Below, piece by piece: positions 9,770 to 58,440 of a DNA stretch of 64,000 nucleotides. A model generated the notes under the pieces. The model was not told the origin of the DNA. It saw only the letters and a list, made by a program, of their open reading frames with translations, and searched no databases. Origin of the DNA: a virus (lineage: Duplodnaviria; Heunggongvirae; Uroviricota; Caudoviricetes); IMG/VR virus record IMGVR_UViG_3300034022_000539; one strand, written 5' to 3'. The first letter of the stretch is position 1; the number at the start of each line of letters is the position of its first letter. Made by a program: the position numbers and the translations under genes.

Positions 9770-9804
9770 GTTTGTATTTTGTTTTTATTTTTGTTTTTAT
9801 TTAA

Positions 9805-10548: not shown

Positions 10549-10558
10549 ATCTGTTTTA

Positions 10559-11107: not shown

Positions 11108-11110
11108 GTT

Positions 11111-11428: not shown

Positions 11429-12021
11429 TATGTCATTTTTGGGTATTTTTTCTTAATTTCTTTATAGAATTTCTTGTAGTTTGTACCAGACATGTGATCT
11501 TCAGCTGCTCTAAGCAAATCTTCTAAAGAAGTCCACATTGTATTTGCTAATTGGTCTTGTGTTGTTGAAACTTGAGCCATTCTGTCTAGAATAGAATCAA
11601 TTATTTCAGGATTTAAAACAGTTTCAGTGCTAGGTTTTTCTGGACCCGCTGCTCTTTTAAGTGTCCACCAATCAACTTTCTTAGGAATAGTGTATGAAAC
11701 AATTCCTTTTTGTTGGTCATTTGGACTAATTTGTCCAGGTTTTCCAATATTACTAGTGATTTTATCTAAATCTAAATTATCATCAAAACCTTTTAATGCT
11801 TTCTGAATATCTTTAGTTAGATCCACATCTGCCATATTTGGCTCGGTTCTAAGATATATCATTGAAGTCGATGACATGTTAAATTCAACGCCTTTTACTT
11901 TAGAAAGCTCTTTCTTAAATTGTTTTTGATACTCATCAACATCTAACCCATTATTATATCCTGGGAAAATATCCATCTTAGCTTCATTAATAAATTCTTC
12001 GTATAGTTTTATGTACTTCAT
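11428..12021 (-). CDS. leader-family protein (197 aa; MKYIKLYEEFINEAK...)
   Basis: N-terminal leader. Confidence 0.65.
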   Translation of the reverse strand: MKYIKLYEEFINEAKMDIFPGYNNGLDVDEYQKQFKKELSKVKGVEFNMSSTSMIYLRTEPNMADVDLTKDIQKALKGFDDNLDLDKITSNIGKPGQISPNDQQKGIVSYTIPKKVDWWTLKRAAGPEKPSTETVLNPEIIDSILDRMAQVSTTQDQLANTMWTSLEDLLRAAEDHMSGTNYKKFYKEIKKKYPKMT

Positions 12022-12305
12022 TATTTCTTTTTTATGTTTTTACCATTTGGTGTTAATTCTCCGTTATCATCCATCACCGTAAAATGTTCTCTCGAATTTC
12101 CTTGTGTTAATTCTATAGATAAACCTTTGTTCATACCACCTGATTCAGTTGAAGACCACAATCTAACTACAGTCCAAATACCTTTTTCACCTTCAACTTT
12201 AACCTTATCCCATGTCTTAACTTCAGTTTGATCAGTAAATGATTTTATTAATTTATCTTCATTAGACTCGTTAATAAAATCTTCGTATAGTTTTGCATAT
12301 TTCAT
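12021..12305 (-). CDS. leader-family protein (94 aa; MKYAKLYEDFINESN...)
   Basis: N-terminal leader. Confidence 0.65.
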   Translation of the reverse strand: MKYAKLYEDFINESNEDKLIKSFTDQTEVKTWDKVKVEGEKGIWTVVRLWSSTESGGMNKGLSIELTQGNSREHFTVMDDNGELTPNGKNIKKK

Positions 12306-20220: not shown

Positions 20221-20233
20221 TATTTATTTTATT

Positions 20234-24118: not shown

Positions 24119-24138
24119 TTTATTTTATATTATTTTTA

Positions 24139-25491
24139 TTATACTACGTTTAGTGTTAATGCACCAGATAGAGGTTGGTCAAATACTTCATATAAAGTGT
24201 ATGCATTTCCTAAATGTGTGAAATCTAATTTAGATACAAATGTAAATGGAATTCCATTCGCAGCATCTGCGAATTTAGCTGTCGTTACATAGTCAGTTGT
24301 ACTAACTGATTTTGGAATTGCAATGTAATATCTTTGTGAAGAAGCCACATTAGCCGCAAAATACAATGTACCGTTAGGTATTTCAGTATTATTTATAGCA
24401 CTAAATGTATCAAAATAAATTTGTTCTACATTATTAGCAGTTCCTTCATTCGCTAACATATCGACAAATACTAAATCAAAATTAGTTGTAGTTGTATTAT
24501 CGTTTAAGTAATAATCAGAAGAAGGTGTAGTTAATGAATTAACTCCTGGATAACCTCCATTTCCGTTCCAGTGGAACCAGAATGTAGATGATCCTTCAGG
24601 AACTGGCGTTGCAGTCGGTTCTGGAATTGAAGTTGCAGTCGGTGCAGGAACTGGCGTTGCAGTCGGTTCTGGAATTGAAGTTGCAGTCGGTGCAGGAACT
24701 GGCGTTGCAGTCGGTTCTGGAATTGAAGTTGCAGTCGGTGCAGGAACTGGCGTTGCAGTCGGTGCAGGAATAGCTGTCGCTGTAGGTGCAGGAACTGGCG
24801 TTGCAGTCGGATCTGGAATTGCTGTCGCTGTAGGCGCAGGAACTTCAGTCGCTGTAGGATCTGGAACTGGCGTTGCAGTTGGGATCACTTCAGTCGCTGT
24901 AGGATCTGGAACTGGCGTTGCAGTCGGGATCACTTCAGTTGCTGTAGGTACAGGAACTTCAGTCGCTGTAGGATCTGGAACTGGCGTTGCAGTCGGGATC
25001 ACTTCAGTTGCTGTAGGATCTGGAACTGGCGTTGCAGTTGGATCTGGTATAGCTGTTGCTGTAGGTGCAGGAACTGGCGTTGCAGTCGGGATCACTTCAG
25101 TTGCTGTAGGATCTGGAACTGGTGTTGCAGTCGGAATAATCGCAGTCGCAGTTGGCAAAATTGTTGCCGTAGGAACAGGAACTGGTGTTGCAGTAGGTGG
25201 TATAGGTGTAATATCAGTAACAAATAAAGTATTTGAAACGGTTTCACATAAATTAGAGTCAATTATTTTAACTTTATATTGACCCGGTGCTAAACCACTA
25301 TTACCCGTATTATCGGTTGCATTACCAAATGTAAACGTATTGGATACAATGTTATTGACAGGATTTTGAAATGTCGGATATGCATTGTTAGGTATCGGTT
25401 GATTTGTACCTGCGTTCAGTAAAGTATATTGGTAAGGTCCGACTCCTCCAACTACTTGTACTGTAACTGTTCCATTATTAATGTTTGCCAT
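24139..25491 (-). CDS. Pro/Thr-repeat protein (450 aa): N-terminal ~95-aa domain, ~20 copies of PTATPVP(D/A)PTATE(V/A)I, C-terminal ~140-aa domain
   Basis: Tandem repeats of 21-42 nt are visible at 24564-25209. Flanking globular parts are conserved. Confidence 0.75.
   Translation of the reverse strand: MANINNGTVTVQVVGGVGPYQYTLLNAGTNQPIPNNAYPTFQNPVNNIVSNTFTFGNATDNTGNSGLAPGQYKVKIIDSNLCETVSNTLFVTDITPIPPTATPVPVPTATILPTATAIIPTATPVPDPTATEVIPTATPVPAPTATAIPDPTATPVPDPTATEVIPTATPVPDPTATEVPVPTATEVIPTATPVPDPTATEVIPTATPVPDPTATEVPAPTATAIPDPTATPVPAPTATAIPAPTATPVPAPTATSIPEPTATPVPAPTATSIPEPTATPVPAPTATSIPEPTATPVPEGSSTFWFHWNGNGGYPGVNSLTTPSSDYYLNDNTTTTNFDLVFVDMLANEGTANNVEQIYFDTFSAINNTEIPNGTLYFAANVASSQRYYIAIPKSVSTTDYVTTAKFADAANGIPFTFVSKLDFTHLGNAYTLYEVFDQPLSGALTLNVV
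24564..25209 (-). repeat. tandem coding repeats (PTATPVPDPTATEVI units)
   Basis: Near-identical 42-nt units (GGAACTGGCGTTGCAGTCGG...) are repeated. Confidence 0.75.
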
Positions 25492-25516
25492 TTGTTTATA
25501 TTTTTATTTTAATTTT

Positions 25517-27196
25517 TTATCTAAAAGGTTCGCCTTCATATCGACATTCAAAGTTTGATGCACATTCTCCGCCCATCGGTAATGCATATACGCCTTCTGG
25601 ATATGCCATTATAAAGTTATTTATGCTATCCCAATAATTAGGTTGCAATGTGCTACATATATTATATACAATACCTCGTGTTCCATTTATTTCAGCTGGT
25701 GCAGACATAAGTTCACTGAATAGTGTATTTTGTATTCCATTAAGATTATAATTTAAACCGAAACCTTCTGTTTGTTCAGTTTCTGGTACGAATATGAAAT
25801 GACAAAAACCTGTTTTACCTAAATCTTCAGGTGTTGGAGTAGGTCTTATAGCTTCTCCTCCACTACCACTATCTGGTGTAGATGTTGGTTCTATTGGTAT
25901 CTCAGTTGCAATTGGTGCAGGAATTAGCGTTGCAGTTGGTGCAGGAACTGGTGTTGCAGTTGGAATAACTGGTGTTGCAGTCGGTGCAGGAATAGCTGTT
26001 GCAGTCGGTGCAGGAACTGGCGTTGCAGTCGGTGCAGGAACTGGTGTTGCAGTTGGTCTTCCCTCAATTGGATCTGGATCTGGTGTTCTAACACCTTCGC
26101 ATCCAAATATATTATGTGTTAATATTCTCTCAAGACTTAAATCAGTACTCGGTGTTACACTTCTAAAAATGTAAACAGCACCTGTATTTAATTCACCTTC
26201 TATTGTAATTGTATCGTCAAGAGTTGGTGGTATAATAGTAAATCCAGCTTCAGTTAATGTTTCAGCTGTACATATATAATTAGGTTGTGCTTTTCCTTCA
26301 GGATTAAAGCAAACTATAAATTCATAATTTAATCGACCATCTATAATTGGTGTTGCGGTAGGTCTTATTGCTTCTGTTGCAGTAGGATCTGGAACTGGCG
26401 TTGCAGTTGGGATCACTTCAGTTGCAGTTGGATCTGGTAAAACTTCAACATCTGTTGGTGTTGGTGTAGGTCTAATAGATTCATCTAATGTTGCAGTCGG
26501 TGTAGGTCTAATAGATTCATCTAATGTTGCAGTAGGATCTGGTAAACCACTTCCTCCACTTCCTCCTCCACTACCACTATCTGGTGTAGATGTTGGTGTT
26601 ATACCAGCACCTCCATCACCTGAACCTCCACCTGAACTAATTGCAGTTGCAGTTGGTGGAATTGGTGTTGCAGTTGGTGGAATTGGTGTTGCAGTCGGTG
26701 TTATACCTGAACCTCCACCACTTCCACTTCCACTGCTATATACAGTAGTTGGTATTGGTGTTGGATCTGGAATTTGCGTTGCATTTGTAGTTGATGCTAA
26801 CGTAATAATAAATCCTCCACAATTATCGATTGCATCTGTTTTAGATGCAAAATTAACATAAAAATCATTACAATCATATTGAGGCGTAATCCAAATATAT
26901 TGACCTGAAGTATAACCAGCGGCTACATATCTGTCGTAATCAGTATCTAATGCACTAATTTTCCAAAATATTAATGATTTTTCTAATTCATTATCAGAAA
27001 GAGTTAAATTAGTATTCTGACCAAATATTCTCCAACCTGCCATAGTTTGTTGAGAATACAACAAATTATAGTCCATTTCAGAATGGGTTAGTGGTCTTCC
27101 TAAAGTATGCGGATGTAATGGAAACCATTTTCCATTAACCATGTTTCTATGAAGTCCGTGTATAAAACTATAATTTTCGATGTTACCGATATCCAT
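25517..27196 (-). CDS. Pro/Thr- and Gly/Ser-repeat protein (559 aa) with PTATP(I/V)P repeats and GSGSGGGSG tracts
   Basis: Repeat composition is like the neighbouring gene. An N-terminal globular domain is present. Confidence 0.75.
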   Translation of the reverse strand: MDIGNIENYSFIHGLHRNMVNGKWFPLHPHTLGRPLTHSEMDYNLLYSQQTMAGWRIFGQNTNLTLSDNELEKSLIFWKISALDTDYDRYVAAGYTSGQYIWITPQYDCNDFYVNFASKTDAIDNCGGFIITLASTTNATQIPDPTPIPTTVYSSGSGSGGGSGITPTATPIPPTATPIPPTATAISSGGGSGDGGAGITPTSTPDSGSGGGSGGSGLPDPTATLDESIRPTPTATLDESIRPTPTPTDVEVLPDPTATEVIPTATPVPDPTATEAIRPTATPIIDGRLNYEFIVCFNPEGKAQPNYICTAETLTEAGFTIIPPTLDDTITIEGELNTGAVYIFRSVTPSTDLSLERILTHNIFGCEGVRTPDPDPIEGRPTATPVPAPTATPVPAPTATAIPAPTATPVIPTATPVPAPTATLIPAPIATEIPIEPTSTPDSGSGGEAIRPTPTPEDLGKTGFCHFIFVPETEQTEGFGLNYNLNGIQNTLFSELMSAPAEINGTRGIVYNICSTLQPNYWDSINNFIMAYPEGVYALPMGGECASNFECRYEGEPFR

Positions 27197-28187: not shown

Positions 28188-28916
28188 TTATTGTTTTTTT
28201 GCTGCTAGTTGTTCTTGAATCCAACGTTTACCTAATGGATTTTGAACTGGTGTACCCAAGTTTCTGTTAATTTGCTTTTCGGCTTGATCTAATAGATCTT
28301 CACCATATGCTGAATTATCAACAATTAACATTTTATCAGATCCAAATAGTTTTTGAAAGTGACCTAAGTTATTTTGAACTTCTTTCCACATTTTTTCAAC
28401 CATTTTATCTTCTAACTTTCTTTCTCTCATTTGATTTCGCTCTAATGCAACTTCTAATGATGTATTAACGAAAACCATATATGTATCATAACCTAAGTTT
28501 TGATAAATATCTCTAGTTTTACTAATCTTATCAAAATCTTTACCAGTTCCATCAATTACTTGACCTAATCTAGAATTTAAATAGTTATTTTGAAGTCCTC
28601 TGGTCAAGTTTTTAGCTTTATCTCTAATAACCATAACTTCAGCCCATTTTTCAGGATCTTTTGCTAAATCTGCAAGATCTCCTGCATTATATCCAGCATC
28701 TTTTAAGCCTTTTTCGAATGCATTATCGTTATTAACTAATTTAAGTCCAGTTGCATAAGACACTGAACCTACTTTTCCTTTTGGAAAATCAAAAAGTTCT
28801 GTTGCAACATAAGATTTACCACTTCCTGGTCCACCTGCCATAAAGAATGCCTTAAGGATTCCTGGATCATATACGCCCTCGCTTACAAATTCTTCAAATA
28901 ATTTGATATATTTCAT
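28188..28916 (-). CDS. leader-family P-loop nucleotide kinase-like protein (242 aa; MKYIKLFEEFVSEG...MAGGPGSGKSYVA)
   Basis: N-terminal leader plus a Walker A motif GGPGSGKS 25 aa in. This is the adenylate/dNMP-kinase-like arrangement. Confidence 0.7.
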   Translation of the reverse strand: MKYIKLFEEFVSEGVYDPGILKAFFMAGGPGSGKSYVATELFDFPKGKVGSVSYATGLKLVNNDNAFEKGLKDAGYNAGDLADLAKDPEKWAEVMVIRDKAKNLTRGLQNNYLNSRLGQVIDGTGKDFDKISKTRDIYQNLGYDTYMVFVNTSLEVALERNQMRERKLEDKMVEKMWKEVQNNLGHFQKLFGSDKMLIVDNSAYGEDLLDQAEKQINRNLGTPVQNPLGKRWIQEQLAAKKQ

Positions 28917-29007: not shown

Positions 29008-29385
29008 CTATTTTGCTATAAAAGCCGAAGTTGTTTTTTCACCATTTCTTAAAAGATTAGCAACTCTAGAATATCCATCTAATAAAACACCATCAACGAC
29101 AACTATTTCTAATGAAAGATCTCTTGGACTTACATCGTCATCAGTGTAACGTTCTTCTCCTGAATCATAATATTCTTTAAAATCAGGATCGGTTTTTAAT
29201 AAAGACTTCATATCAAAATCATCTACGTTTGCAAATGTTCTACCAACAATATCTTTTTTAAATCCATTTGGAATATTTTCTTTTTCAGGTGTAATATCTT
29301 TAATATGTCTCCATACTTCTGATCCCTTTAAATCATTATATTCATTTAAATTGTTGTAGTCTTCATATGTTTTAACGTGTCTCAT
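29008..29385 (-). CDS. leader-related protein (125 aa; MRHVKTYEDYNNLNEY...), divergent leader
   Basis: The N-terminus keeps M-[KR]-H-[VI]-K-x-[FY]-E-[DE]-[FY]. Confidence 0.55.
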   Translation of the reverse strand: MRHVKTYEDYNNLNEYNDLKGSEVWRHIKDITPEKENIPNGFKKDIVGRTFANVDDFDMKSLLKTDPDFKEYYDSGEERYTDDDVSPRDLSLEIVVVDGVLLDGYSRVANLLRNGEKTTSAFIAK

Positions 29386-29405
29386 AATCTAATGTACTTT
29401 TGTTA

Positions 29406-31841
29406 TTATCTTGGCCAAAGCATTACTGTTCCTGGATCTGCAAATTGACCATACCATCCACACTTATCTAAAAATTTAGCAAGATCTTTGTGAATACCTT
29501 GTGGAAATTTAGATCCTCCATGGTAATAGTTAAACATTTCATCTTTCGCATTTGGCATTAATAAACCGTCGTTACCACCTAACCAAATACCACCTTCTTC
29601 ACCGTCAAACTCTTCCGAATTTTTTACGAAACTAAGACCATATTTAGTAACCATTACGTTTTTCATTTCTACTCTTGATAAAATCTTAGCTTCATTCAAG
29701 TACTTAGATTCCTGTAAAGAATGCTCGTTAACAATAGACTCATCAACCTTAATTCCTCTTTTCTTAAGAAGTTTTTCAATTTCTTGATATGCTTTCTTAT
29801 AATCTGCTTTTGGATATTCAAATCCTTTTAACCAATTAGCATATCCACTTAATGCGTCATCATACATTTTCTTTAGATCTTCATCAGATGTTGAATTACT
29901 AAAGAAAAATGGTCCTACAAATGCCTCGTCAATAGAACCTGACATTAATTTATATTTCCATGATTTTAGTTTCTTTTCTAATTCAGCTTTATCTTCTGCT
30001 TCAAAATCAAACTCATCATTGTAACCATAGTATCCTTTACCACGTTTTTCAATGTAAGTTAATCCATCTTCACCGTCGTAGATTGCAATTTCTCTATCGT
30101 TATTATAAGTACCTTCTAAGATCTTTACACGTACGATGTCTTTTTTGGCAATACTATCTCCGTTAAAAACTAAATCATTATACATTTTACCAACAGAACC
30201 TTTAATTCCTTTTTTGGACTTTGTATCGATTGATAATACTTTATTAGTTCTGCTAAAATAATCTAACATATCGTAATCAAGATCTTTAGCATCTACTGTT
30301 TCGCCAGGACCTGGAAAGTTTTCATCTAAAGATTCAGTTTGAAAATGATTTCTATTAATCTTATTCAAATAATTTAATTCTTCGTCATTTAATTTAGTTG
30401 CAACTAATGATCTAAATTTACCACGTTGTTGAGAAGGCGTAAGCTTCATAAATTCAACAATATCTTTGTCATCTTTAATTTTATCAATGATTGATTTTAC
30501 AGCTTTATCAGATTTTCTTTTTTGCCACCAATTTTTTAAATCTTCAATTGGAGTAGTACCACCACCTGCACTTATTTTATTACCTAATAATGCTAATTGT
30601 CCCATAACCATGGCAGATTGCATTAGTATTAAAAATGTGGTTGCAGCATCTTCATTAATTGTAGATTCTAACATTTCTTCTTGCTCTGGAAAGTTTAAAC
30701 TTTTACCAGCTGCAACTTGAATACCCGTAGCACCTCTTAATGAAACTCTTAAATTGAATTTATCTCCATTTTCATTTTCAGCTTCAAAATCTCTAGTTGC
30801 TCCAGTTTTTGAACCAAATCCAGTTATTGTGTAAGTTCCTTTTTGAGTTTTAATTTTGTTTCCAATTTTAAAACCATTTGCCATTTTAGGACTAATCATT
30901 CCTTCAACTAATTTCACCAATTTCGAATCGATCCATTCTTCACTAGAACCATCCCATCTAATTAGAGATTTATTAGCTCTAGTTTTTACTAACTCACCAG
31001 TTCCTTGTAATTCACCTTTAGTATCATAAACATGTACTAACTCAACTGCTTCATCGATTGATTCATCACCGAATCTATAACCACTAAACATGTTTTTAGC
31101 TTTTACAAGATCATCTTGTGTACCCGTTCCTTGATATAATATTTTACAACTATCAGAATAGTTTTTTGCGTCACTTAGAACTTCTCTTACATCTGCTGCT
31201 CCAATTGCAATATAACCCGCACTGGTTGAATTTCCAGGATTTGTATATAAAACAAATTTTTGTTTTTTAGCTTCATTAAGGGTTGATTCTAACAATATTA
31301 ATCCAGCTGCCTTTGCTTCATCTCGTAATTCATCAAATTCTTCTATATCACTTCCTTTGATATAATCTGTTAAACCTCTAAAATTTTTAAAGTTTAACTT
31401 CTGTATTATATTAGTATTGCTATTATAAATAGCTCTTAAAAAATCTTTAACACCAGCAGAACTTAAATGTAATTCATTTAAAGTTTCTTCAAGGCTAATT
31501 GATTCCAATACTTTAGAATTATCTTCAATAGCTTCTAATGTATCTGGCATTGTTCTAATTCCCACTCCGAATTTTTCATCCCATCTTTCAGATTTATATC
31601 CTGTACAATATTTGTCTTTAAGATCTTTATGATTTGCAAAAACACCACCTGGTAAATTAGTGATAATAGTACCCTTTGGTAAAACTACATTAATATAATT
31701 ACCAATCTTAGCATCTTTGACATCCTTCTTTAATTCGTATTTACGATTATCTAAAGTGGTGATAGTTCTACCGCTTGTTCCAGAAATCATTTGCTTTGAA
31801 ACTTCGCTTATGAATTCTTCAAATAATTTAACTTTCTTCAT
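29406..31841 (-). CDS. leader-family large protein (811 aa; MKKVKLFEEFISEVS...)
   Basis: N-terminal leader. The body was not recognised. Confidence 0.7.
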   Translation of the reverse strand: MKKVKLFEEFISEVSKQMISGTSGRTITTLDNRKYELKKDVKDAKIGNYINVVLPKGTIITNLPGGVFANHKDLKDKYCTGYKSERWDEKFGVGIRTMPDTLEAIEDNSKVLESISLEETLNELHLSSAGVKDFLRAIYNSNTNIIQKLNFKNFRGLTDYIKGSDIEEFDELRDEAKAAGLILLESTLNEAKKQKFVLYTNPGNSTSAGYIAIGAADVREVLSDAKNYSDSCKILYQGTGTQDDLVKAKNMFSGYRFGDESIDEAVELVHVYDTKGELQGTGELVKTRANKSLIRWDGSSEEWIDSKLVKLVEGMISPKMANGFKIGNKIKTQKGTYTITGFGSKTGATRDFEAENENGDKFNLRVSLRGATGIQVAAGKSLNFPEQEEMLESTINEDAATTFLILMQSAMVMGQLALLGNKISAGGGTTPIEDLKNWWQKRKSDKAVKSIIDKIKDDKDIVEFMKLTPSQQRGKFRSLVATKLNDEELNYLNKINRNHFQTESLDENFPGPGETVDAKDLDYDMLDYFSRTNKVLSIDTKSKKGIKGSVGKMYNDLVFNGDSIAKKDIVRVKILEGTYNNDREIAIYDGEDGLTYIEKRGKGYYGYNDEFDFEAEDKAELEKKLKSWKYKLMSGSIDEAFVGPFFFSNSTSDEDLKKMYDDALSGYANWLKGFEYPKADYKKAYQEIEKLLKKRGIKVDESIVNEHSLQESKYLNEAKILSRVEMKNVMVTKYGLSFVKNSEEFDGEEGGIWLGGNDGLLMPNAKDEMFNYYHGGSKFPQGIHKDLAKFLDKCGWYGQFADPGTVMLWPR

Positions 31842-32631
31842 TTGTTTTAAATGTTTTTATATGATTCTTTATTTCTTCTTCTTTTAATTCTTGATCCCAT
31901 TTTATAAAGAATATGGTTTCATATACATTATCTCCCATCATGTCATACATTGATTTGAGTTGTATTAATTCAAATTCTTCTTGATCTTTATCAGAATCTT
32001 TTAAATGGGATATTAATCCTCTGAAGTTATATATCTCGTTGTATTTAAGATCAGTCTCTTTGTAATTCATTATCTTGGAACCATAGTACTCCAAATGAAA
32101 TCCCAGCTCTTCTAAAGGCTTAATTAAATTTAACTTATGATTCTTAATGATACGCTTACTAGGCAGACCAGCGTTTCCATAAAAACAAATGGCTATCTGT
32201 TTAGACCATTTAGAAACCCAATCAGAACACACACCCACAACCTTATCGATGTTCGTGTCATTACATGAAATAGTATTAGAAGTGTATTGATTTGTGATAT
32301 TAGACCAAGGAATACCCTTAGAAGTTATTGTAATATTATCACTTTTGTTATAGAAGAAATTAAGAGATGGAGCATTCTCTAATAAAAAAGAAAACGTTTG
32401 AGTATCCATGCAATTAATCCATAGATATTCTAAACGTTTTATATTTGTAAGCCAATCCCAATCTATTTGGGTTTTTGGTCCATTTGCACCTAAAAAGAAT
32501 TTATTGTCTTGATACCAAAAATCTATTTTGACATTGTATCCTTGTTGAATTGCGAAATCTATATAATCTGGTGTATTTTCTAATAATACGTTAGGTCCTG
32601 TAATATTACCTTTGTTCGATATTAATAACAT
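31828..32631 (-). CDS. hypothetical protein (267 aa)
   Basis: Long ORF. Its start overlaps the end of the 811-aa gene. Confidence 0.6.
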   Translation of the reverse strand: MLLISNKGNITGPNVLLENTPDYIDFAIQQGYNVKIDFWYQDNKFFLGANGPKTQIDWDWLTNIKRLEYLWINCMDTQTFSFLLENAPSLNFFYNKSDNITITSKGIPWSNITNQYTSNTISCNDTNIDKVVGVCSDWVSKWSKQIAICFYGNAGLPSKRIIKNHKLNLIKPLEELGFHLEYYGSKIMNYKETDLKYNEIYNFRGLISHLKDSDKDQEEFELIQLKSMYDMMGDNVYETIFFIKWDQELKEEEIKNHIKTFKTNEES

Positions 32632-32644
32632 AAACGTTTATTAG

Positions 32645-32884
32645 TTATACATCTAAACTATCATGTGTTTCATTCTCTTTACGCTTTAATTGCCAGCGAA
32701 ATAATATGGATAGCCCAAAGAACGACGCCGCAATAAAATACATAACGAAATTGGCGCGCCAAAGACTTCCAGTCGTCTGGATCAACCAGTACTGAATTAC
32801 GTCGAACCCAAGCGGATTGAAAAATAGGGCTACCATCATGCTCCATGTTGATAGACGGCTTTTTAGTTTTTTCGTTATACTCAC
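32645..32884 (-). CDS. small membrane protein (79 aa), in a locally GC-richer segment
   Basis: Two overlapping candidate frames exist (32645-32884 and 32679-32900). The frame with TM-like hydrophobic helices was chosen. The segment 32690-32830 has atypical GC content. Confidence 0.35.
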   Translation of the reverse strand: MSITKKLKSRLSTWSMMVALFFNPLGFDVIQYWLIQTTGSLWRANFVMYFIAASFFGLSILFRWQLKRKENETHDSLDV

Positions 32885-32901
32885 GACTGTCTGCTTCCAT
32901 A

Positions 32902-33867
32902 TTAGTTAATATACATATTCAATTCAAATTTATCGTTTCCTCTATTATAAATTTGAACATGTAAAGATTTCTTTTGTTCCTTATCGTTTTTAAAAAGTGT
33001 TAAGGTATCTTTTTTGGTTTTACCATCATTTGGTTTAAAGAATGCATCTATATAAGCATCACCGTATTCTTTAGGATCTAATGTATATCCTTGAGAATTA
33101 GCATATATTTCAACTGCATTAATAGCTGAGGAATAGAGATTGTGATAAACTGGATAGTCATCTTTCTTCTCATTAACTACGCTTTCTTTTAAACCTAATT
33201 CTTTGTGTAATACTGACATGAATGGTCCAAAATTATGTGTACCGTATTCATCGATCAATACCTTAGCAACTGCTAATGCAAAATCAGTGTATGACAAAGA
33301 GTCATCAATTTTAATAATTGCTGAATCAATTCCTTTTGCTAATGCATCAGAATTTTTAGATTCACTAATATAAACGAATTTATCGCCTTTGAATGCTTTA
33401 TTTAAATCTTTAAGTAAATCTTCTGGTCCAGTGTGTTCTGCTGTTGAAAACCATTTACCTCTGTATTGAAAATCTCCATCATAATCAACTTTAACCATAC
33501 CATCATCTGAGAATATAAATGCATTTTCATCATCTTCCCAATCAACTGTGATTTTCTTTTCTTTAATACCATCAACACCATCCATTGCATCATGAACTGC
33601 GTTTAGATTGTCCACCGCTCCAGTGATTTGAGAAAACATCCAAGATTCTAATTTTTGACCGCCTTTCATGCGATCTCCGATCATTTCAGCATAATCTTCA
33701 ATTCTTTCTAATTGACCTAAAGTCATATTATTTAATTCAGTAAGAGTATCACCTTCTTCAGTAATTGATTTTTCTGACATATAAAATGCAGCATACTGTT
33801 CTCTTGACATATTCTGCTGAGAAGCAGCAATATTTAGATAATCGTCGAATAATTTAACTATTTTCAT
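32902..33867 (-). CDS. leader-family protein (321 aa; MKIVKLFDDYLNIAAS...)
   Basis: Divergent but recognisable leader. Confidence 0.65.
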   Translation of the reverse strand: MKIVKLFDDYLNIAASQQNMSREQYAAFYMSEKSITEEGDTLTELNNMTLGQLERIEDYAEMIGDRMKGGQKLESWMFSQITGAVDNLNAVHDAMDGVDGIKEKKITVDWEDDENAFIFSDDGMVKVDYDGDFQYRGKWFSTAEHTGPEDLLKDLNKAFKGDKFVYISESKNSDALAKGIDSAIIKIDDSLSYTDFALAVAKVLIDEYGTHNFGPFMSVLHKELGLKESVVNEKKDDYPVYHNLYSSAINAVEIYANSQGYTLDPKEYGDAYIDAFFKPNDGKTKKDTLTLFKNDKEQKKSLHVQIYNRGNDKFELNMYIN

Positions 33868-33881
33868 GATTTGTATTTTAT

Positions 33882-34220
33882 TTAATATTCAAATGGTGGT
33901 GTACCATAATCAGCACGTTTAACAGCATACCAAACTCGACCTACTCTGAAATACCAGAATGTTGGTGTGTCAATGATATAGTGTTGTCCTTTAATAGTTA
34001 CGTCTTTGTAACCACCTCTTGTAAAGTTCTTTGTTACAGGAACTCCGTCGTCCCATGTTTTATCAGTAGATTGTGCTTTGAAAGTTTTACCACTAAAGGT
34101 TGCTAAATAAATTTCTGCAGGTTTACCTTCTGATTTTTCGTCTTTAGTAAAAGCTTCTAAACCGATTGGCATTTCATTACCTTCGTTTACGAATTCTTCA
34201 AATAATTTAGTGTGTTTCAT
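33882..34220 (-). CDS. leader-family protein (112 aa; MKHTKLFEEFVNEGN...)
   Basis: N-terminal leader. Confidence 0.65.
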   Translation of the reverse strand: MKHTKLFEEFVNEGNEMPIGLEAFTKDEKSEGKPAEIYLATFSGKTFKAQSTDKTWDDGVPVTKNFTRGGYKDVTIKGQHYIIDTPTFWYFRVGRVWYAVKRADYGTPPFEY

Positions 34221-34408
34221 TTGTAATCTTGTTTTTCACGAGGTTGTCTCTTTCTTAAATTAATTTCGTCTCTTAATTCTTTGATCCTATCTTTGATAAT
34301 CATAATTCTATAATTATGCCATTTTCTAACTATAAAACATTTAGATTTATTTGCTTCTAAGTTTTCTAGTTCGGATTCAAAAAATTTAACCAATTTAAAG
34401 AGTGCCAC
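34217..34408 (-). CDS. small basic protein (63 aa)
   Basis: ORF with a 4-nt overlap to the downstream gene. Confidence 0.4.
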   Translation of the reverse strand: MALFKLVKFFESELENLEANKSKCFIVRKWHNYRIMIIKDRIKELRDEINLRKRQPREKQDYK

Positions 34409-34421
34409 CGTGTGTATTGTT

Positions 34422-34760
34422 TTATTGTTTTTCGTTAGCTCTGCACCAAACTACTGCATCTTTTGGAGTTTTTAACTCTTCATCATATCCACTTAAGTCA
34501 TAAATACCTAAGATAGTTTGACCATCGTCATTTAAATAGAATGAAAATTCTTCCATGTCACCTTCGTGTCTTGGAGCTTCAGATTCTAATCCATTTGCAA
34601 AGTGTACAATATGTGGAAATTCTTCTTGATCGTCATGTCCCCAAATAAGTTTTTCTACATTTTTGGCTTTAGCAAGTTCTTTAAATAATTTTACTAAAAT
34701 CTCTGGTTTAGGTGATTTAGCTTCATTTAAGAATTCTTCGAATAATTTAGTGTGTTTCAT
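34422..34760 (-). CDS. leader-family protein (112 aa; MKHTKLFEEFLNEAK...)
   Basis: N-terminal leader. Confidence 0.65.
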   Translation of the reverse strand: MKHTKLFEEFLNEAKSPKPEILVKLFKELAKAKNVEKLIWGHDDQEEFPHIVHFANGLESEAPRHEGDMEEFSFYLNDDGQTILGIYDLSGYDEELKTPKDAVVWCRANEKQ

Positions 34761-34766
34761 AATATC

Positions 34767-35096
34767 TTATTTATATTCTTTTTCGTATTTAGCTTTTAAT
34801 TCTTCCCAAGCTGCTTTGTATTTAGCAGGAATTTTAGAAGGTTCATAAATTCTTGAATTTGATCTTTTGCTTGATCCTACTTTATAGTTTGAACCAGTGT
34901 ATTGTTCCATGAATTCATCTCCAACTTTTTTATCACCATCAGCTTTAACATAAATACCATATGTGATAAATGTATCACCGTCTAAGTGACCTTCTAAAAT
35001 ATCACAACAAGGATTATGATCCTTGTTAGAATTAAATTTAAAGTCAATGAATTTACCTTCGTTGATAAATTGTTCAAATAGTTTAATGTGTTTCAT
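34767..35096 (-). CDS. leader-family protein (109 aa; MKHIKLFEQFINEGK...)
   Basis: N-terminal leader. Only 5 nt separate it from the upstream stop. Confidence 0.65.
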   Translation of the reverse strand: MKHIKLFEQFINEGKFIDFKFNSNKDHNPCCDILEGHLDGDTFITYGIYVKADGDKKVGDEFMEQYTGSNYKVGSSKRSNSRIYEPSKIPAKYKAAWEELKAKYEKEYK

Positions 35097-35101
35097 AATT
35101 A

Positions 35102-35371
35102 TTAAATTAATTTTGCTTTTGCTAATTTTGCTTTTAAAAGTTTACCAACTCTAGATTCAATTCCAGGAGATCTAAAAGAACCACCTATTTCGTTAGCTTC
35201 TTTTTTAATTAAAGTGATTAAGTCATCGATAGCAACTTCAACGTTAGCCATTAAATCTTCTTCTCTTGCTTCTTCGTCATCTGAAATAGTACCATCAGAT
35301 TTCTTTTCAGTAATCGTCTTAGGTAATTCAATTTTATTTGCGAAAGCTTCGAAAGGTTTTGCGTATTTCAT
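35102..35371 (-). CDS. leader-related protein (89 aa; MKYAKPFEAFANKIE...)
   Basis: Divergent leader. Confidence 0.55.
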   Translation of the reverse strand: MKYAKPFEAFANKIELPKTITEKKSDGTISDDEEAREEDLMANVEVAIDDLITLIKKEANEIGGSFRSPGIESRVGKLLKAKLAKAKLI

Positions 35372-41558: not shown

Positions 41559-43100
41559 TTACTTAATTACTTTTATTCCCATATTAGCATTAAATGGGTT
41601 AGGCATACTTCCTTTTTGTTCAAATTGAAAGTTAGCTGATTTAAATGGTATTGTTTTAAATATAAGAGTTCCTTTGTTTACAGAAACATCTAAATATAAT
41701 TGTTTTACATCTGTTACCATTCTTCCAAATTTAGATAATTCATTAGAATACGTATTAGTTAATAATGTAGCTATTTCAACCATTAAAGCATAAAATACTA
41801 TTCCAATTTTGTTTTTACCCATTGTAGGATATGACTTTATCATCTCATTTAATTTAGCTTTATTCCATTGCATTTTACTCAAATCCCATAATTTAGATAT
41901 GAAATTGCTAAATTCATCTACATTAGAATCGTATAATATATCTAGAAAACTAACAACAGCATCTTGAGTTAGCATCGAGGGATCTAATTTAGATTCTGAA
42001 CAAAGAAGCCAATATCCTGAATTTGAATGATCTTTTATATTAACATTACACAAATTCATTATATTGTCATAAGTACCACTTCTAGCTAATTTAGGAGGAT
42101 TAACCCACTGCTCTACAACATTAGTAAGGAAATCTGATTCTAGTGCAGTTTCTGCTTGTATTAAAGAATCTTGTTTGGCTTGGTATATTTTTTGAATTAT
42201 AGTATCTCCACTCGGTGTTCCTCCTTTTCCGCCTTTTGAAGAAATAGAATATCCGCTAAAATAAAAATCTACTAATTTTTCATTAGATGATTTTGGATAA
42301 GATAATCCCACACCATATGATTGAAGTATATTAAAAAACATAAAGCCTCCTAATATTTCTCCGTAATCATTTTGGAAATGTTGGATTGAAATAGGATCAA
42401 TACCCTCAAATATATTATTGTCAACACTATAAGATATGTCATGTACTCCAGCTGCTAAATAAGCATCAAAATCTTTAAATTTATTTTTATTTGATGAATT
42501 ATTCATAATAGATTCAGTTACTGTAATAAAACATTTTTTATAGTTTTCTGGTAAACTGCTATTAGATATAGCCGGAGAGACAACTGCAAATAAACTTTCA
42601 GCTGATTGATATATGTTTTTTGTTATACCTAGATTATCAGGTGTAAGATCTTTTCTACCAACAACACCCTGCTCTCCTTTTTTATTAACTTTAAATCTAT
42701 TGGTAATTGTTATAAAGTCTCCTTTTTTATAATCTTTACCTAAAGCATCTGATACTTTAGTATTGAAAATTATTGTATATCCTGCGAAATCACTAGAAAC
42801 AATTCCTTGTTGTTTAAATTCTATACTATAAGACGATGGATCAATACCACCTACTTCTTTAAGAAATTCTATAATTTTAGTTTCTGCCGTTCCGTCATTT
42901 GCGCCGAAATTTGCTCTTAACACTTCACCTGTTCCACTTATTCTACTGGAAACACCAGCAAAATCTTTAGAATTCATAAACTTTTTAAAACCTTCTAGCC
43001 AAAACTCTTCAATTGCTTTTTTAGTTGGTTGTTTTGATTCATGAATAGCTTTATCCATTGCTATTTGAAAATTATTTCTAATGTCTTTAAATGTACTCAT
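41559..43100 (-). CDS. hypothetical protein (513 aa)
   Basis: Long ORF. No motif was recognised. Confidence 0.65.
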   Translation of the reverse strand: MSTFKDIRNNFQIAMDKAIHESKQPTKKAIEEFWLEGFKKFMNSKDFAGVSSRISGTGEVLRANFGANDGTAETKIIEFLKEVGGIDPSSYSIEFKQQGIVSSDFAGYTIIFNTKVSDALGKDYKKGDFITITNRFKVNKKGEQGVVGRKDLTPDNLGITKNIYQSAESLFAVVSPAISNSSLPENYKKCFITVTESIMNNSSNKNKFKDFDAYLAAGVHDISYSVDNNIFEGIDPISIQHFQNDYGEILGGFMFFNILQSYGVGLSYPKSSNEKLVDFYFSGYSISSKGGKGGTPSGDTIIQKIYQAKQDSLIQAETALESDFLTNVVEQWVNPPKLARSGTYDNIMNLCNVNIKDHSNSGYWLLCSESKLDPSMLTQDAVVSFLDILYDSNVDEFSNFISKLWDLSKMQWNKAKLNEMIKSYPTMGKNKIGIVFYALMVEIATLLTNTYSNELSKFGRMVTDVKQLYLDVSVNKGTLIFKTIPFKSANFQFEQKGSMPNPFNANMGIKVIK

Positions 43101-43102
43101 AT

Positions 43103-43702
43103 TTATTTGTATGCTCTAATTGTTGATATTTGTATTCCTTCATGTTCTTGTTCTAATGATTTTACTAATACTAAATTAGCCTCATCATCATCGTAAAATT
43201 GTAGGTCACTGTAACCCATATCGATCAATTCTCTAAACGCTTGTTTTTTACGATCCGATATACTACCTTTGAATTTATGTACTGAATCATTCACTGCAAA
43301 AATAAGATCTTTGTCGATTCTAAATCCAACATGTTCTCTTAACCATCTATAAATCATTTCTCTATCATCTCTTGCTGTAACAATTCCAACTGCGATGCGT
43401 GATTTATAAGCTTCTTTAAATATGTCTAAGTAATGTTCAATCATTTGACCAGCTTTCATAATCTCTAATGATTTAAATTCATCAAAGTTTAATTCATGAT
43501 CTGCATGTTTTTCATAACTATTAAATTCTTCTGGAGTCAGTGAATAACATTCTCCTGTTTTCTTATTGCAAACCTTTATTTTTGCTGATGAAATTACTAA
43601 AGTATCGTCAAGATCAAACACAAGAATCTTGGAACCATGATATGGTTTTCCAGCTCTGTTTACCTCATTTAGGTATTCTGTGTAATTTTTAACGTGTTTC
43701 AT
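43103..43702 (-). CDS. leader-family HAD-superfamily phosphatase (199 aa; MKHVKNYTEYLNEV...LVFDLDDTLV)
   Basis: A divergent leader is followed by HAD motif I DxDxT (FDLDDTL) and a later T-A-R-D motif. Confidence 0.7.
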   Translation of the reverse strand: MKHVKNYTEYLNEVNRAGKPYHGSKILVFDLDDTLVISSAKIKVCNKKTGECYSLTPEEFNSYEKHADHELNFDEFKSLEIMKAGQMIEHYLDIFKEAYKSRIAVGIVTARDDREMIYRWLREHVGFRIDKDLIFAVNDSVHKFKGSISDRKKQAFRELIDMGYSDLQFYDDDEANLVLVKSLEQEHEGIQISTIRAYK

Positions 43703-43732
43703 CTTAGCTTATACTTAAAAATCTAATAATGT

Positions 43733-43996
43733 TTATTTATTAGATTCTATTTTTATTTTCAATGCAGTAAGTTTTATATCAATTTTTGATATTTCTGCTT
43801 GCATGGAAAGTTTCTGTGCAGTTAATGCTAACATTTCAGATTTTAATGGATCCTCTTCGTTTCTCATTGCTTTTGCAGTTTCAGCAGCTTTAGTTTTAAT
43901 CTCGTTTCTTTTAGAATCTAATTCTCTAACTTTAAGATTTAGGTCAGCTACTTTTTGAGCATCCTCAAATAATTGGAAAGTTTTCAGGTGTTTCAT
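43733..43996 (-). CDS. leader-related coiled-coil protein (87 aa; MKHLKTFQLFEDAQ...)
   Basis: Divergent leader. Confidence 0.55.
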   Translation of the reverse strand: MKHLKTFQLFEDAQKVADLNLKVRELDSKRNEIKTKAAETAKAMRNEEDPLKSEMLALTAQKLSMQAEISKIDIKLTALKIKIESNK

Positions 43997-44288
43997 CTTT
44001 TGGTATTTCTTTTTCTATTTCTAGAGTCCATAGTCTATTATTAGGTACTACGAATTTTCTTTCATGTCCAAAAACATAAAAAGTTGTTTTGTATATATTT
44101 TGTCTAACTATTCTAGCTTTCTTTGCGCCTTTAATATAAACTATATCATCTACATTAAAATCATTGCCCCATAAAAACTGCATACCAATAACAAGATTAG
44201 CAATCATGTCTTTGAATGTAAATGAAATTATAGCTACTGCTGTCACCCAACCCCATTCTGATATGTATTGTCCTATTAACTCTTTCAT
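43965..44288 (-). CDS. small membrane protein (107 aa)
   Basis: ORF with an N-terminal hydrophobic helix. Its end overlaps the start of the next gene. Confidence 0.5.
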   Translation of the reverse strand: MKELIGQYISEWGWVTAVAIISFTFKDMIANLVIGMQFLWGNDFNVDDIVYIKGAKKARIVRQNIYKTTFYVFGHERKFVVPNNRLWTLEIEKEIPKDETPENFPII

Positions 44289-44773
44289 ATTAGTCCCATT
44301 GCACTTAAATTTTGTAGAACCACTTGTTGACTTAACATTATAACTTGTGAAGCTTCTATTTTGTCCATAAATTTGGCATTATCAATTTCTTCACGCTGTA
44401 ATTGCCCTTTAGGTACCACTAGATCTTTAAGTCCTATTTTAGACAGGTCATCTATTTCAACTATAAAATAATAAATAACTTTATTATACTTATACTTTCT
44501 AGAAGTTAAAACAAATGTACGTTCAATTTTACTTATTAAAGATTTAGGAACTTTAATACCGAACTCTTCATAAGTTTCTCTGATAGCAGCATCTAAATGT
44601 GATTCACCTTCTTCGATGCCACCTTTAGATATACCATAACCAGTTCCTTCTTTTCTACCTCTAGATTGACCTAACAAAATTTTACCATCAAACACAATCG
44701 CAAGACCAGCTGAATATCTAGTGTCTAGATATTTCTCGTTGATAAATTGATCATATTTTTTTAGGTGTTTCAT
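44285..44773 (-). CDS. leader-family NUDIX hydrolase (162 aa; MKHLKKYDQFINEKY...)
   Basis: Has an intact Nudix box GGIEEGESHLDAAIRETYEEFGI (Gx5Ex7REUxEExGU). Confidence 0.8.
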   Translation of the reverse strand: MKHLKKYDQFINEKYLDTRYSAGLAIVFDGKILLGQSRGRKEGTGYGISKGGIEEGESHLDAAIRETYEEFGIKVPKSLISKIERTFVLTSRKYKYNKVIYYFIVEIDDLSKIGLKDLVVPKGQLQREEIDNAKFMDKIEASQVIMLSQQVVLQNLSAMGLI

Positions 44774-45063
44774 TATGCCGCAGTTTCGTCATCTAATCTT
44801 TTAATCTCTTCTTGTATTTCAAATAATCTCCATTCGAAATCAAATAATTCTTGACGACTTAATTTATTTTGTTTAAATGACTTTTTAGCTCTGCTGTATT
44901 CTTCAGTCAATCGCTTAAGTACTTTCTTTAGTTCACTCTTTGTTTGATTAGCGCCAATCGAATGTTGAGTATTACTCTTGTCTATTTTTACCTCATTCGT
45001 TTTTTCAACAACGATCATCTCGAAGTCTGAAAATAGCATTAGAAATTTTTCTGTAGTGCTCAT
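44773..45063 (-). CDS. hypothetical coiled-coil protein (96 aa)
   Basis: ORF with a 1-nt overlap. Confidence 0.5.
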   Translation of the reverse strand: MSTTEKFLMLFSDFEMIVVEKTNEVKIDKSNTQHSIGANQTKSELKKVLKRLTEEYSRAKKSFKQNKLSRQELFDFEWRLFEIQEEIKRLDDETAA

Positions 45064-45136
45064 GATGTTTTTTATGTTTTTAATTTAAACACTTATAACT
45101 TATATATCGAGTTTATATTTTTCTTTAACTCTATCA

Positions 45137-58136: not shown

Positions 58137-58143
58137 TCTTTAG

Positions 58144-58217
58144 TGGAGGTGACAGGAATCGAACCTGCGACCCTCTGCGTGCAAGGCAGATGCTCTAGCC
58201 AACTGAGCTACACCCCC
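58144..58217 (-). tRNA. tRNA-Ala (anticodon UGC)
   Basis: The sequence folds into a cloverleaf by hand. The acceptor arm is GGGGGTG/CACCTCC with the G3:U70 Ala identity pair. The D-arm is GCTC/GAGC. The anticodon arm is TCTGC-CTTGCAC-GCAGA. The T-arm is GCAGG-TTCGATT-CCTGT. The discriminator is A and no CCA is encoded. Confidence 0.85.
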
Positions 58218-58440
58218 GCGATACTTATATATCGTATTAATTTTAGCGATGTGAGAAACTAGCCTATTCCATTTAAAACTCATATCACTTCGGGATCTAA
58301 CCGCTCTAATCTCAAGTTCAGTATCAGAACCATTCTGGTATGTGTTGATTAGTAACCTTTATCGTATATATGGTGTCCACCACTTTAGCATCAGAGTGAA
58401 TAAGTCTTAATGCCTACTCGAACAGTTTTTTAAGGTTTAA

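Follow-up and report, generated by a model that had tools for sequence, protein, structure and literature searches.

A Leader Peptide Resembling the T4 Capsid-Targeting Sequence on a HAD Phosphatase, a NUDIX Hydrolase and Other Proteins of an Uncultured Marine Phage

In the 64,000-nucleotide stretch of virus record IMGVR_UViG_3300034022_000539 (Caudoviricetes; this whole stretch is called the window below), a number of unrelated proteins begin with the same short peptide, which we refer to as the leader. A HAD-superfamily phosphatase, a NUDIX hydrolase and a small helical protein that carry it lie together at positions 43103–44773, which raises the question of what such a leader is for. The initial annotation of this segment suggested that it might target proteins into the capsid, so that the enzymes would be delivered to the host with the DNA. 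Our comparative analysis points in the same direction: the leader is probably a capsid-targeting propeptide of the type known from phage T4, and the three proteins would then be packaged and injected cargo.

The segment consists of four tightly packed open reading frames (ORFs) on the minus strand, encoding proteins of 162, 107, 87 and 199 amino acids (aa). The main features are as follows.

43103–43702, minus strand: HAD-superfamily phosphatase, 199 aa, with the leader MKHVKNYTEYLNE at 43664–43702
43598–43618, minus strand: HAD motif I, FDLDDTL, residues 29–35 of this protein (found in the sequence)
43733–43996, minus strand: 87-aa basic helical (coiled-coil-like) protein, whose ORF starts MKHLKTFQLFEDA
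44285–44773, minus strand: NUDIX hydrolase (PF00293), 162 aa, with the leader MKHLKKYDQFINE at 44735–44773
44555–44623, minus strand: Nudix box GGIEEGESHLDAAIRETYEEFGI, residues 51–73, which fits GX5EX7REUXEEXGU

All three leader-tagged ORFs described in the initial annotation, as well as HAD motif I and the intact Nudix box, are present with the N-termini it quoted. The 107-aa ORF, located between the 87-aa ORF and the NUDIX gene, is not part of that description.

Occurrence and Conservation of the Leader

Based on a simple gene map and a peptide pattern, 17 of 87 ORFs in the window carry the leader (17.6% of coding residues). All are on the minus strand and fall into four clusters (9.1–12.3, 28.2–31.8, 32.9–35.4 and 43.1–44.8 kb). 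In addition to the genes above, they include:

9083–12305, minus strand: six consecutive leader ORFs without a known family (pattern search and Pfam), at 9083–9769, 9805–10548, 10559–11107, 11111–11428, 11428–12021 and 12021–12305
28188–28916, minus strand: leader-tagged P-loop kinase of the zeta-toxin/AAA_33 type, 242 aa, leader MKYIKLFEEFVSE (Pfam and PHROG)
29008–35371, minus strand: second group of leader ORFs, at 29008–29385, 29406–31841, 32902–33867, 33882–34220, 34422–34760, 34767–35096 and 35102–35371

The consensus leader, MKHIKLFEQFINE, is 13 residues long and was found on more than 140 proteins of IMG/VR. The 17 window ORFs and 128 ORFs from IMG/VR loci have only residues 1–13 in common. 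A logo was built from 146 distinct leaders retrieved with a DNA pattern that constrains only codons 1–10. Of these, 77% have I, V, L or M at position 11 and 78% have E at position 13; positions 11–13 read [ILVM]-x-E in 102 of the 146 (70%), compared with a background of 2%. From position 14 on, conservation is lost and small residues are the most frequent. Among sequences of the HAD family, L, I or V stands at position 11 in 80/80, and N12 and E13 are each present in 79/80. The leader ends with L-N-E in the HAD protein, I-N-E in the NUDIX protein and L-F-E in the 87-aa protein, whose version is shorter (MKHLKTFQLFE/DA, 43964–43996; here and below, a slash marks the position after the terminal E). 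As a helix, the leader would be amphipathic, with a hydrophobic moment above that of 96–100% of shuffled sequences. Without it, the leader proteins of the window would range from 8 to 90 kDa, with pI values of 4.6–9.5.

A degenerate DNA pattern for the first ten leader codons matched the window ten times, always on the minus strand (0.00 matches expected from 100 dinucleotide-preserving shuffles). The copies share no related DNA ahead of their start codons, and within the leader synonymous codons are used (TTT/TTC, ATT/ATC/ATA, GAA/GAG and CTA/TTA). Thus, the peptide rather than a DNA cassette is under selection, and a DNA repeat or promoter cassette was ruled out on the same two grounds.

A complete in-frame leader, MKHIKLFEQFSKTLNE, was also noticed inside a 229-aa ORF (8376–9065, minus strand), at residue 142 (8613–8642). 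This ORF is either a fusion of two genes or has an internal start that gives an 88-aa leader protein.

The Phage and Its Relatives

The window is 100% identical to approximately positions 175.8–239.8 kb of ENA contig ERZ27272104:k141_203066 (260,917 bp), and none of 50,697 deposited phage genomes is closely related to it. Against the INPHARED phages, megablast with 14 kb gave zero matches. In tblastn searches, the NUDIX protein matched a single distant huge phage and a leader protein encoded next to the portal gene (see below) matched nothing. Thus, there is no cultured close relative.

Scanning IMG/VR with the degenerate DNA pattern of the leader yielded at least 120 stretches, located on contigs of 5–480 kb with a median GC content of 34%. 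The ORFs of these loci were clustered all-against-all and Pfam was run on representatives. T4-like families were detected, including Portal_T4 (1e-67), Peptidase_S77 (3e-14), UvsW, gp15, family-B polymerase and DnaB; at least one Pfam-verified T4 hallmark family is present in 54 of the 120 leader loci listed, which are short. A portal-profile scan retrieved 80 loci. Among them is L156, on a 165-kb IMG/VR contig, whose HAD and NUDIX proteins are 98–99% identical to those of the window; DNA identity between the two is 88–97% across the syntenic overlap.

Portal similarity places the clade nearest to uncultured huge phages, Prevotella Lak phages, Sphingomonas phage PAU and Tenacibaculum phage PTm1, its nearest cultured relative by this measure, and its portal is closer to those of PTm1, Lak and PAU phages than to those of Straboviridae. 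Homologs of both enzymes form large marine metagenomic families (hundreds of clusters, with contigs from Tara, JGI and ENA), and one homolog is found in a metagenome-assembled genome labeled Flavobacteriales. The host of the clade is likely to belong to Bacteroidota. PTm1 has the same portal-protease-capsid layout. A 462-kb genome (LR756500.1) keeps the LINE/AEI start of the capsid protein, with zero leader ORFs within 41 kb. Literature searches with the leader string returned nothing, and no paper describing a capsid-targeting sequence (CTS) in marine T4-like phages was found.

Similarity to the T4 Capsid-Targeting Sequence and Organization of the Head Genes

A homology search with the protease of L156 identified a homolog, P0271, on the window's own contig. 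P0271 belongs to PF03420 (Peptidase_S77), and the head region lies at 21.7–43.7 kb of the ENA contig (locus L214). The gene order in this region is Phage_T4_gp2, Portal_T4, a 113-aa acidic protein, a 660-aa Peptidase_S77 protein whose long tail is acidic and coiled, and the Gp23 capsid protein (Pfam assignments were made on the L156 copies). The 113-aa protein between portal and protease has the leader itself (MKIIKTFEDFLTE/DALR...), and related genomes encode a leader-bearing acidic protein of 110–125 aa at the same place; in almost every one of 62 loci, the ORF that follows the portal is leader-like. In T4, the order read from AF158101 is 20-67-68-21-22-23. Judged by position, the leader-bearing acidic protein would occupy the slot of T4 gp67/68, which belong to the prohead core.

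The prohead protease of the clade is a fusion of 615–695 aa (L214:10001–11983, L156:10020–12002), with an S77 domain of about 160 aa at the N-terminus and a long acidic, coiled region after it. This one gene apparently takes on the work of both gp21 and gp22 of T4.

In T4, gp21 cuts after L/I-X-E (PMC9026906). The T4 record shows that internal proteins (IPs) II and III both start with MKTYQEFIAE/A, and gp23 has the junction ..GSFLTE/AEIGGDHGY. The Gp23 capsid protein of our contig starts with MANLLNE/AEIKNTWAP..., and M-x(2-5)-[LI][LI]NE/[AS]E[IV] describes the start of 33 of the 41 capsid proteins in the portal loci, which parallels LTE/AEI of T4. The T-even IPs are a diverse set with the CTS alone in common, and the first ten residues of IPIII are sufficient for incorporation into the head (PMC9026906, PMC3012670, PMC5694885). 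Residues 4 and 7 of the CTS mainly govern targeting, and residues 8 and 10 processing (PMC9026906). When aligned from the cleavage end, Y4-Q-E-F7-I8-A-E10 of T4 corresponds to [FY]7-E-[QE]-[FY]10-[ILV]11-N-E13 of the leader. Thus, the four positions most conserved in the leader are those matched by the two targeting aromatics and the two processing residues of T4. BLAST returned the same alignment unprompted for the NUDIX protein (LKKYDQFINE versus MKTYQEFIAE). In these alignments, the leader matches the T4 CTS at both targeting and processing positions.

The two systems share a short N-terminal peptide on unrelated proteins, the [ILV]-x-E/ ending, a gp21-family protease, the capsid junction and a T4-type order of head genes. 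On the other hand, the T4 CTS has 10 residues and the leader 13 (an extra H-I-K follows M-K), and the leader prefers N at position x. The clade is distant from T4, marine and probably infects Bacteroidota. The cargo of T4 comprises three IPs and Alt, compared with at least 17 candidate genes in 64 kb here, including recognizable hydrolases and kinases. A similar strategy is used by the giant phages phiKZ, 201phi2-1 and SPN3US, which load many head-internal proteins via N-terminal propeptides that a gp21 homolog cuts after Glu (PMC9026906, PMC5694885). However, these propeptides are mostly 80–160 residues long, have no single consensus and are cut at S/A-X-E, whereas the leader has [ILV]-X-E.

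Taken together, we infer that the leader proteins are packaged, cleaved and injected as follows. The leader would form a short amphipathic helix that binds the scaffolding core of the prohead and would be removed by the gp21-family (Peptidase_S77) prohead protease, which is predicted to cut after the terminal [ILV]-x-E (E13). The predicted mature N-termini are VNRAGKPYHGSK (HAD), KYLDTR... (NUDIX), DAQK... (87-aa protein) and AEIKNTWAPIISEATGINESSK (capsid protein). The mature proteins would stay free inside the head and be ejected with the DNA, and the HAD, NUDIX and 87-aa helical proteins would be three of at least 17 cargo proteins encoded in the window.

Tagged and Untagged Homologs

NUDIX homologs at 55–100% identity have the leader directly before ..ETRYSAGLAI, and other homologs at 58–66% identity start with M-x-x-K-x-x-YSAGLAI and have no leader. 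In one homolog, an extra domain is inserted between the leader and NUDIX. Among the matches listed, about half of the marine NUDIX homologs and all 120 HAD homologs carry the leader. HAD orthologs at 53–56% identity in L046 and L056 (relatives of 150–170 kb with the same downstream gene) begin exactly after the leader and linker. In L005, the HAD and 87-aa proteins retain the leader with substitutions (MKHIKTQKIYE/DA in the latter, ending in I-Y-E). The leader also persists with substitutions in homologs at 55–85% identity from hundreds of independent metagenomes. In AlphaFold (AF2) models of both enzymes, it is a low-confidence helix (residues 7–14 or 7–15) followed by a linker, outside the globular fold. 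The leader is a modular feature at the peptide level.

The NUDIX Hydrolase and the HAD Phosphatase

The NUDIX protein matches PF00293 at 1e-12 (48.6 bits, cut-off 21.1), and residues G51, E57, R65, E66, E69, E70 and G72 are invariant in 28 homologs. Its AF2 model has a predicted local distance difference test score (pLDDT) of 88.7 and a predicted template-modeling score (pTM) of 0.83. Foldseek returned 505 PDB matches at E<=1e-3, with probability 1.00 to Ap4A hydrolases and RppH; the top structural neighbors are Ap4A/Ap6A hydrolases, E. coli RppH, DR1025, NadM-type ADP-ribose pyrophosphatases, Dcp2 and NudC. All NCBIfam equivalog models scored far below their cut-offs and were spread over RppH, NTPase, NAD diphosphatase, NudE and NadM-Nudix. 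The best match in T4 is NudE (39% identity over 59 aa, a stretch that contains the distinctive SAG[LI] first strand). Based on sequence and model, the protein appears to be a NudE.1/Ap4A-hydrolase/RppH-like enzyme with structural neighbors of mixed substrates. According to the annotation in the T4 record, NudE.1 (gene e.1) acts on FAD, diadenosine polyphosphates, ADP-ribose and NADH; decapping of NAD-RNA by it in vitro is reported (preprint 10.1101/2024.04.04.588121). Overall similarity between the two proteins is low and their likeness falls short of established orthology; moreover, the T4 protein has no CTS-like leader, whereas the window protein has one.

In the HAD protein, the residues of all four motifs (D30-x-D32-x-T34, T109, K152 and D171-D173) are the same throughout 20 sequences, among them the leaderless orthologs at 53–56% identity, and the Rossmannoid HAD fold is present. 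Subfamily profiles gave matches below their cut-offs (Acid_phosphat_B, 16.2 bits vs 27; DUF2608, 16.6 vs 22.6; NCBIfam HAD-IIIA, 16.2 vs 44.6), and therefore we assign it at the superfamily level only. A PDB sequence profile search found zero relatives. By its motifs, it appears to be a catalytically intact, type-III-like HAD phosphatase; in the alignments, the catalytic residues of both enzymes are intact.

A match to PHROG 415 ("polynucleotide kinase") at 1.6e-12 makes a polynucleotide 3'-phosphatase one live possibility for the HAD protein, and plant VSP/acid phosphatase and MDP-1 score as well as Pnkp. Compared with T4 Pnkp (PseT), in which a 5'-kinase and a 3'-phosphatase form one polypeptide, and with the bacterial RNA-repair phosphatase Pnkp1 (HAD type III), the window protein has the phosphatase-like domain only and an extra beta-rich insert after motif I. 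No significant sequence match was found between it and PseT. The leader-tagged kinase at 28188–28916 (Zeta_toxin, 8e-10; AAA_33, 8e-9; PHROG 505 "polynucleotide kinase", 1.9e-7) sits 14 kb from the HAD gene and could conceivably be the kinase counterpart of a Pnkp-like HAD phosphatase. The idea of RNA repair by the HAD protein, the kinase and a ligase-like neighbor has a single related large protein with a sub-threshold RNA_ligase match (9.5e-4).

Large proteins of about 600–940 aa adjoin leader clusters in four loci (L060:6468–8309, L063:6752–8617, L104:9800–11593 and L101:6029–8839). By eye, their N-termini resemble RNA-ligase motif I (..SEK[IV]xGSxF..), and two have a C-terminal cytidylyltransferase domain. 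The 513-aa protein encoded next to the HAD gene is similar to one of them.

The identification of the two enzymes in the initial annotation was right, as shown by motifs, profiles and folds. Its view of the HAD protein as a hydrolase of small signaling molecules is not supported, as the protein resembles polynucleotide 3'-phosphatases and type-III HADs instead. The NUDIX protein is of the NudE.1/Ap4A-hydrolase/RppH-like type, and its T4 relative is not known as virion cargo. The coiled coil proposed for the 87-aa protein has a plausible composition (no Gly, a single central Pro, hydrophobic a/d positions), but heptad periodicity is not significant. This protein, with a mature pI of 9.5 and zero matches to Pfam or PHROG families, is probably a helical hairpin.

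Leader Proteins in Related Phages

When 145 leader proteins were scanned individually against Pfam, most had no family, and almost all of the identifiable ones are small enzymes. Three are matched by Acb1/2_5_RNA_ligase2 and have both 2H H-x-T/S motifs (L017:3747–4295, L067:979–1518 and L122:8006–8554), L067 being on a 256-kb contig that has several genes in common with the window. Three others are cytidylyltransferase/NMNAT-like with GRFQPFHNGH (L018:7917–8522, L099:6396–6992 and L104:7470–8042). Further identifiable families are NUDIX, zeta/AAA_33 kinase, GNAT, ATP-grasp and AAA/MoxR.

Acb1 (T4 gp57B) is a 2H phosphodiesterase that counteracts the cyclic-oligonucleotide-based antiphage signaling system (CBASS). 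By family assignment, the cargo repertoire of related phages would thus include a family with a known counter-defense role. The Acb1-like proteins lie outside the window, and an IP-type CTS is lacking in T4 Acb1. Neither the HAD nor the NUDIX protein is related to Acb1; both are without its two H-x-T/S motifs and do not match its profile. The repertoire fits an early-acting kit for takeover or counter-defense, and the presence of the leader on Acb1-like and NMNAT-like enzymes in relatives gives some indirect support to the anti-defense idea. The same repertoire is also compatible with cytoplasmic housekeeping.

In L126:5102–9637, a cluster for NAD/nucleotide salvage (NAMPT of the NAPRTase family, a phosphoribosyltransferase and a nucleoside 2-deoxyribosyltransferase-like gene) was observed 0.4–5 kb past the right edge of the window.

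Operon Context and a Promoter-Like Motif

Several genes without the canonical leader surround those described above.

41559–43100, minus strand: 513-aa protein directly downstream of the HAD gene, without leader (ORF)
43965–44288, minus strand: small membrane protein with an MscS beta-domain, 107 aa (PF00924, 8e-6)
44773–45063, minus strand: first gene of the operon, 96 aa, without leader or family (ORF; conserved in L005 and L046)
45100–45108, minus strand: promoter-like motif GATATATAA, 37 nt upstream of the NUDIX/HAD operon (motif scan)

The 3' end of the 107-aa MscS ORF overlaps the start of the 87-aa ORF by 32 nt, and orthologs are found in L005 and L046. It has no canonical leader; its N-terminus, MKELIGQYISE/W, precedes a transmembrane helix. 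The I-x-E before this helix, with [FY]-[IV]-[SG]-E as its counterpart in relatives, possibly marks a degenerate leader. The linkage between the HAD and 513-aa genes is kept in relatives; the 513-aa family has zero Pfam or PHROG matches, and its gene is the most diverged part between the window and the related IMG/VR contig. In L005, where the HAD protein is 80% identical, the position of the NUDIX gene is taken by a leaderless PAP2/PhoC-type acid phosphatase (L005:8765–9427; NCBIfam, 3.8e-10), which suggests that this position is a swappable "phospho-hydrolase" slot.

The motif GATATATAR was detected at the following places.

7906, 12327, 17423, 28938, 32027, 35396, 40552, 45100 and 58225, minus strand: GATATATAR sites in the window (motif scan)
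7950, 9591, 11998, 13612, 19295 and 21301, coding strand (6/6): GATATATAR sites in L214 (motif scan)

All nine window sites are on the coding strand (9/9; 3.3 expected on both strands). The motif usually lies 20–100 nt upstream of operon starts, leader clusters included. On the window's contig it immediately precedes the genes for portal, core protein and capsid, and it is also present in L156. It is likely to be a phage-specific promoter element and possibly the counterpart of the T4 late promoter TATAAATA. Its distribution suggests that the NUDIX/HAD operon may be coexpressed with these head genes. The motif was not accepted as proving late expression, since it is also found ahead of sugar-metabolism operons and a tRNA. 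No enrichment was found in the window for sigma-70 promoters (42 found, 41 expected) or terminator-like sites (4 vs 2.7).

Several other features of the window were noted. A single tRNA-Ala (TGC) lies at 58143–58217 (minus strand), with GATATATAA immediately upstream at 58225–58233. Positions 1–1750 include a 1.65-kb gene-free stretch of 42% GC (genome, about 30%) between divergent transcription units. It contains a cluster of GGAAGCTYCCTGG direct repeats at about 1436–1570 (L130:9684–9818) and a 34-nt inverted repeat, and could be a replication origin or regulatory region; scanning the first 1.7 kb, which is gene-free, against Rfam gave no match. A 1294-aa collagen-repeat protein at 20234–24118 (minus strand) is tail-fiber-like (PHROG tail-fiber families down to 5e-108). 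In the region 17500–27196, it is flanked by family-less proteins of 906, 450 and 559 aa, the latter two being paralogs.

Alternative Explanations for the Leader

The main alternative is that the leader serves a purpose other than one in the capsid and that the HAD and NUDIX proteins are ordinary cytoplasmic enzymes for nucleotide, NAD or RNA-end housekeeping; the leader could then be a tag for translation efficiency, for timed degradation or for docking to a common partner in phage or host. Such a role would suit the resemblance of the NUDIX protein to T4 NudE, which has no CTS, and the usual view of T4 NudE.1 and PseT as housekeeping enzymes. It would also suit the leaderless orthologs of both enzymes, the metabolic-looking NMNAT-like, GNAT, ATP-grasp and AAA proteins that carry the leader, and the NAD-salvage genes (NAMPT and phosphoribosyltransferase) just past the window; in addition, the contig encodes a ClpB-like AAA+ protein that could in principle recognize a tag. 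However, the gp21 cleavage motif at the leader end, the same junction at the start of the capsid protein, the constant tag on the protein between portal and protease, and the alignment with functionally mapped residues of the T4 CTS would all be left unexplained, and codon-level variation speaks against an element of mRNA or translation initiation. We regard a non-capsid role as unlikely. That the shared N-termini are an artefact of a repeated DNA cassette, mis-called starts or chance might be suspected in an AT-rich genome in which MK- starts are common. This is effectively refuted by the ten pattern matches against 0.00 expected, the unconserved flanks, the synonymous codons and the persistence of the leader in homologs.

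A different possibility accepts targeting to the prohead core but sees the leader proteins as assembly-phase proteins, degraded or expelled or acting within the head, rather than as effectors in the host. The leader protein encoded next to the portal is acidic and takes a gp67/68-like place in the gene order, and two window proteins, 29406–31841 (811 aa) and 32902–33867 (321 aa), belong to its BLAST family in related phages. The HAD and NUDIX proteins, on the other hand, are compact, intact and under strong purifying selection (77–97% identity, more than 100 homologs, invariant catalytic residues), which is hard to reconcile with a disposable scaffold part. In T4, moreover, the proteins that have one CTS at the N-terminus (IPs and Alt) stay in the head and are ejected (PMC9026906). 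For the tagged proteins as a whole, such a restriction to assembly seems improbable.

Several points weigh against capsid targeting as the function of the leader. The likeness to the T4 CTS spans only about seven aligned positions of a short peptide, and the leader is absent from PTm1. The leader is carried by a very large share of genes (17/87) and, in relatives, by types without an obvious use in packaging (NMNAT-like, GNAT, ATP-grasp and AAA ATPases). The leaderless orthologs show that the enzymes work without packaging, T4 NudE is not known as a head protein, and the occurrence of GATATATAR before sugar-metabolism operons and a tRNA leaves head-specific late expression unproven by this motif. 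In addition, no virion proteomics or N-terminal data were found for this uncultured phage or close relatives. Even so, a T4-type capsid-targeting propeptide is the explanation we consider most probable. The initial proposal of a capsid-targeting leader thus gains strong comparative support from the CTS likeness, the cleavage motif, the S77 protease, the capsid junction, the gp67/68 slot and the leaderless orthologs; nothing in the analysis shows an anti-defense role or a specific substrate.

Candidate Functions and Implications

If injected, the NUDIX and HAD proteins, possibly together with the kinase at 28188–28916, might act on nucleotide-derived molecules or RNA ends before phage gene expression, and this activity could serve host takeover or counter-defense. 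A broader and rather doubtful extension is that a marine T4-like clade of large or jumbo phages has made the CTS a general delivery platform, with dozens of tagged genes per genome forming an enzymatic kit for counter-defense and takeover. Such a kit would comprise the NudE.1/Ap4A-hydrolase-like NUDIX protein, a split Pnkp-like phosphatase and kinase, and the Acb1-like and NMNAT-like proteins of relatives; its targets, acted on before any of the phage genes is expressed, would be nucleotide signals, NAD-derived molecules or damaged RNA ends.

The mechanism itself is the known CTS/internal-protein system of T4, and enzymatic cargo, the concept put forward in the initial annotation, has precedents, the closest being Alt and engineered CTS fusions. 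T4 Alt, an ADP-ribosyltransferase, is a head-carried enzyme whose propeptide is removed by gp21 and which is delivered to the host (PMC9026906). CTS fusions have likewise delivered beta-galactosidase, EcoRI, luciferase, GFP and staphylococcal nuclease to heads (20–200 copies) and then to the infected cell (PMC9026906). Alt differs in that its propeptide is not an IP-type CTS, its C-terminus is also processed and its enzyme class is not that of the NUDIX or HAD protein. Relative to the literature searched, the novelty is threefold: a distant marine clade, abundant but uncultured, has a distinct consensus leader of 13 residues; the leader is used on such a scale that about one-fifth of the window genes carry it; and it is found on recognizable NUDIX, HAD, kinase, 2H and NMNAT-type enzymes that have untagged close orthologs.

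Even if true, the finding overturns nothing established; it supplies specific enzymes that can be tested. Injected-protein lists for T4-type phages have so far needed virion proteomics, and if the leader works like the T4 CTS, the injected proteins of an uncultured phage could be listed from sequence alone; for this clade such a list would be unusually long. The leader and its protease would also provide a natural second CTS-protease pair for engineered protein delivery by phage heads. For the biology of these phages, packaged cargo, so far inhibitors such as IPI plus one enzyme, Alt, would come to include a wide range of enzymes, and many small unannotated proteins would become candidate early-acting effectors.

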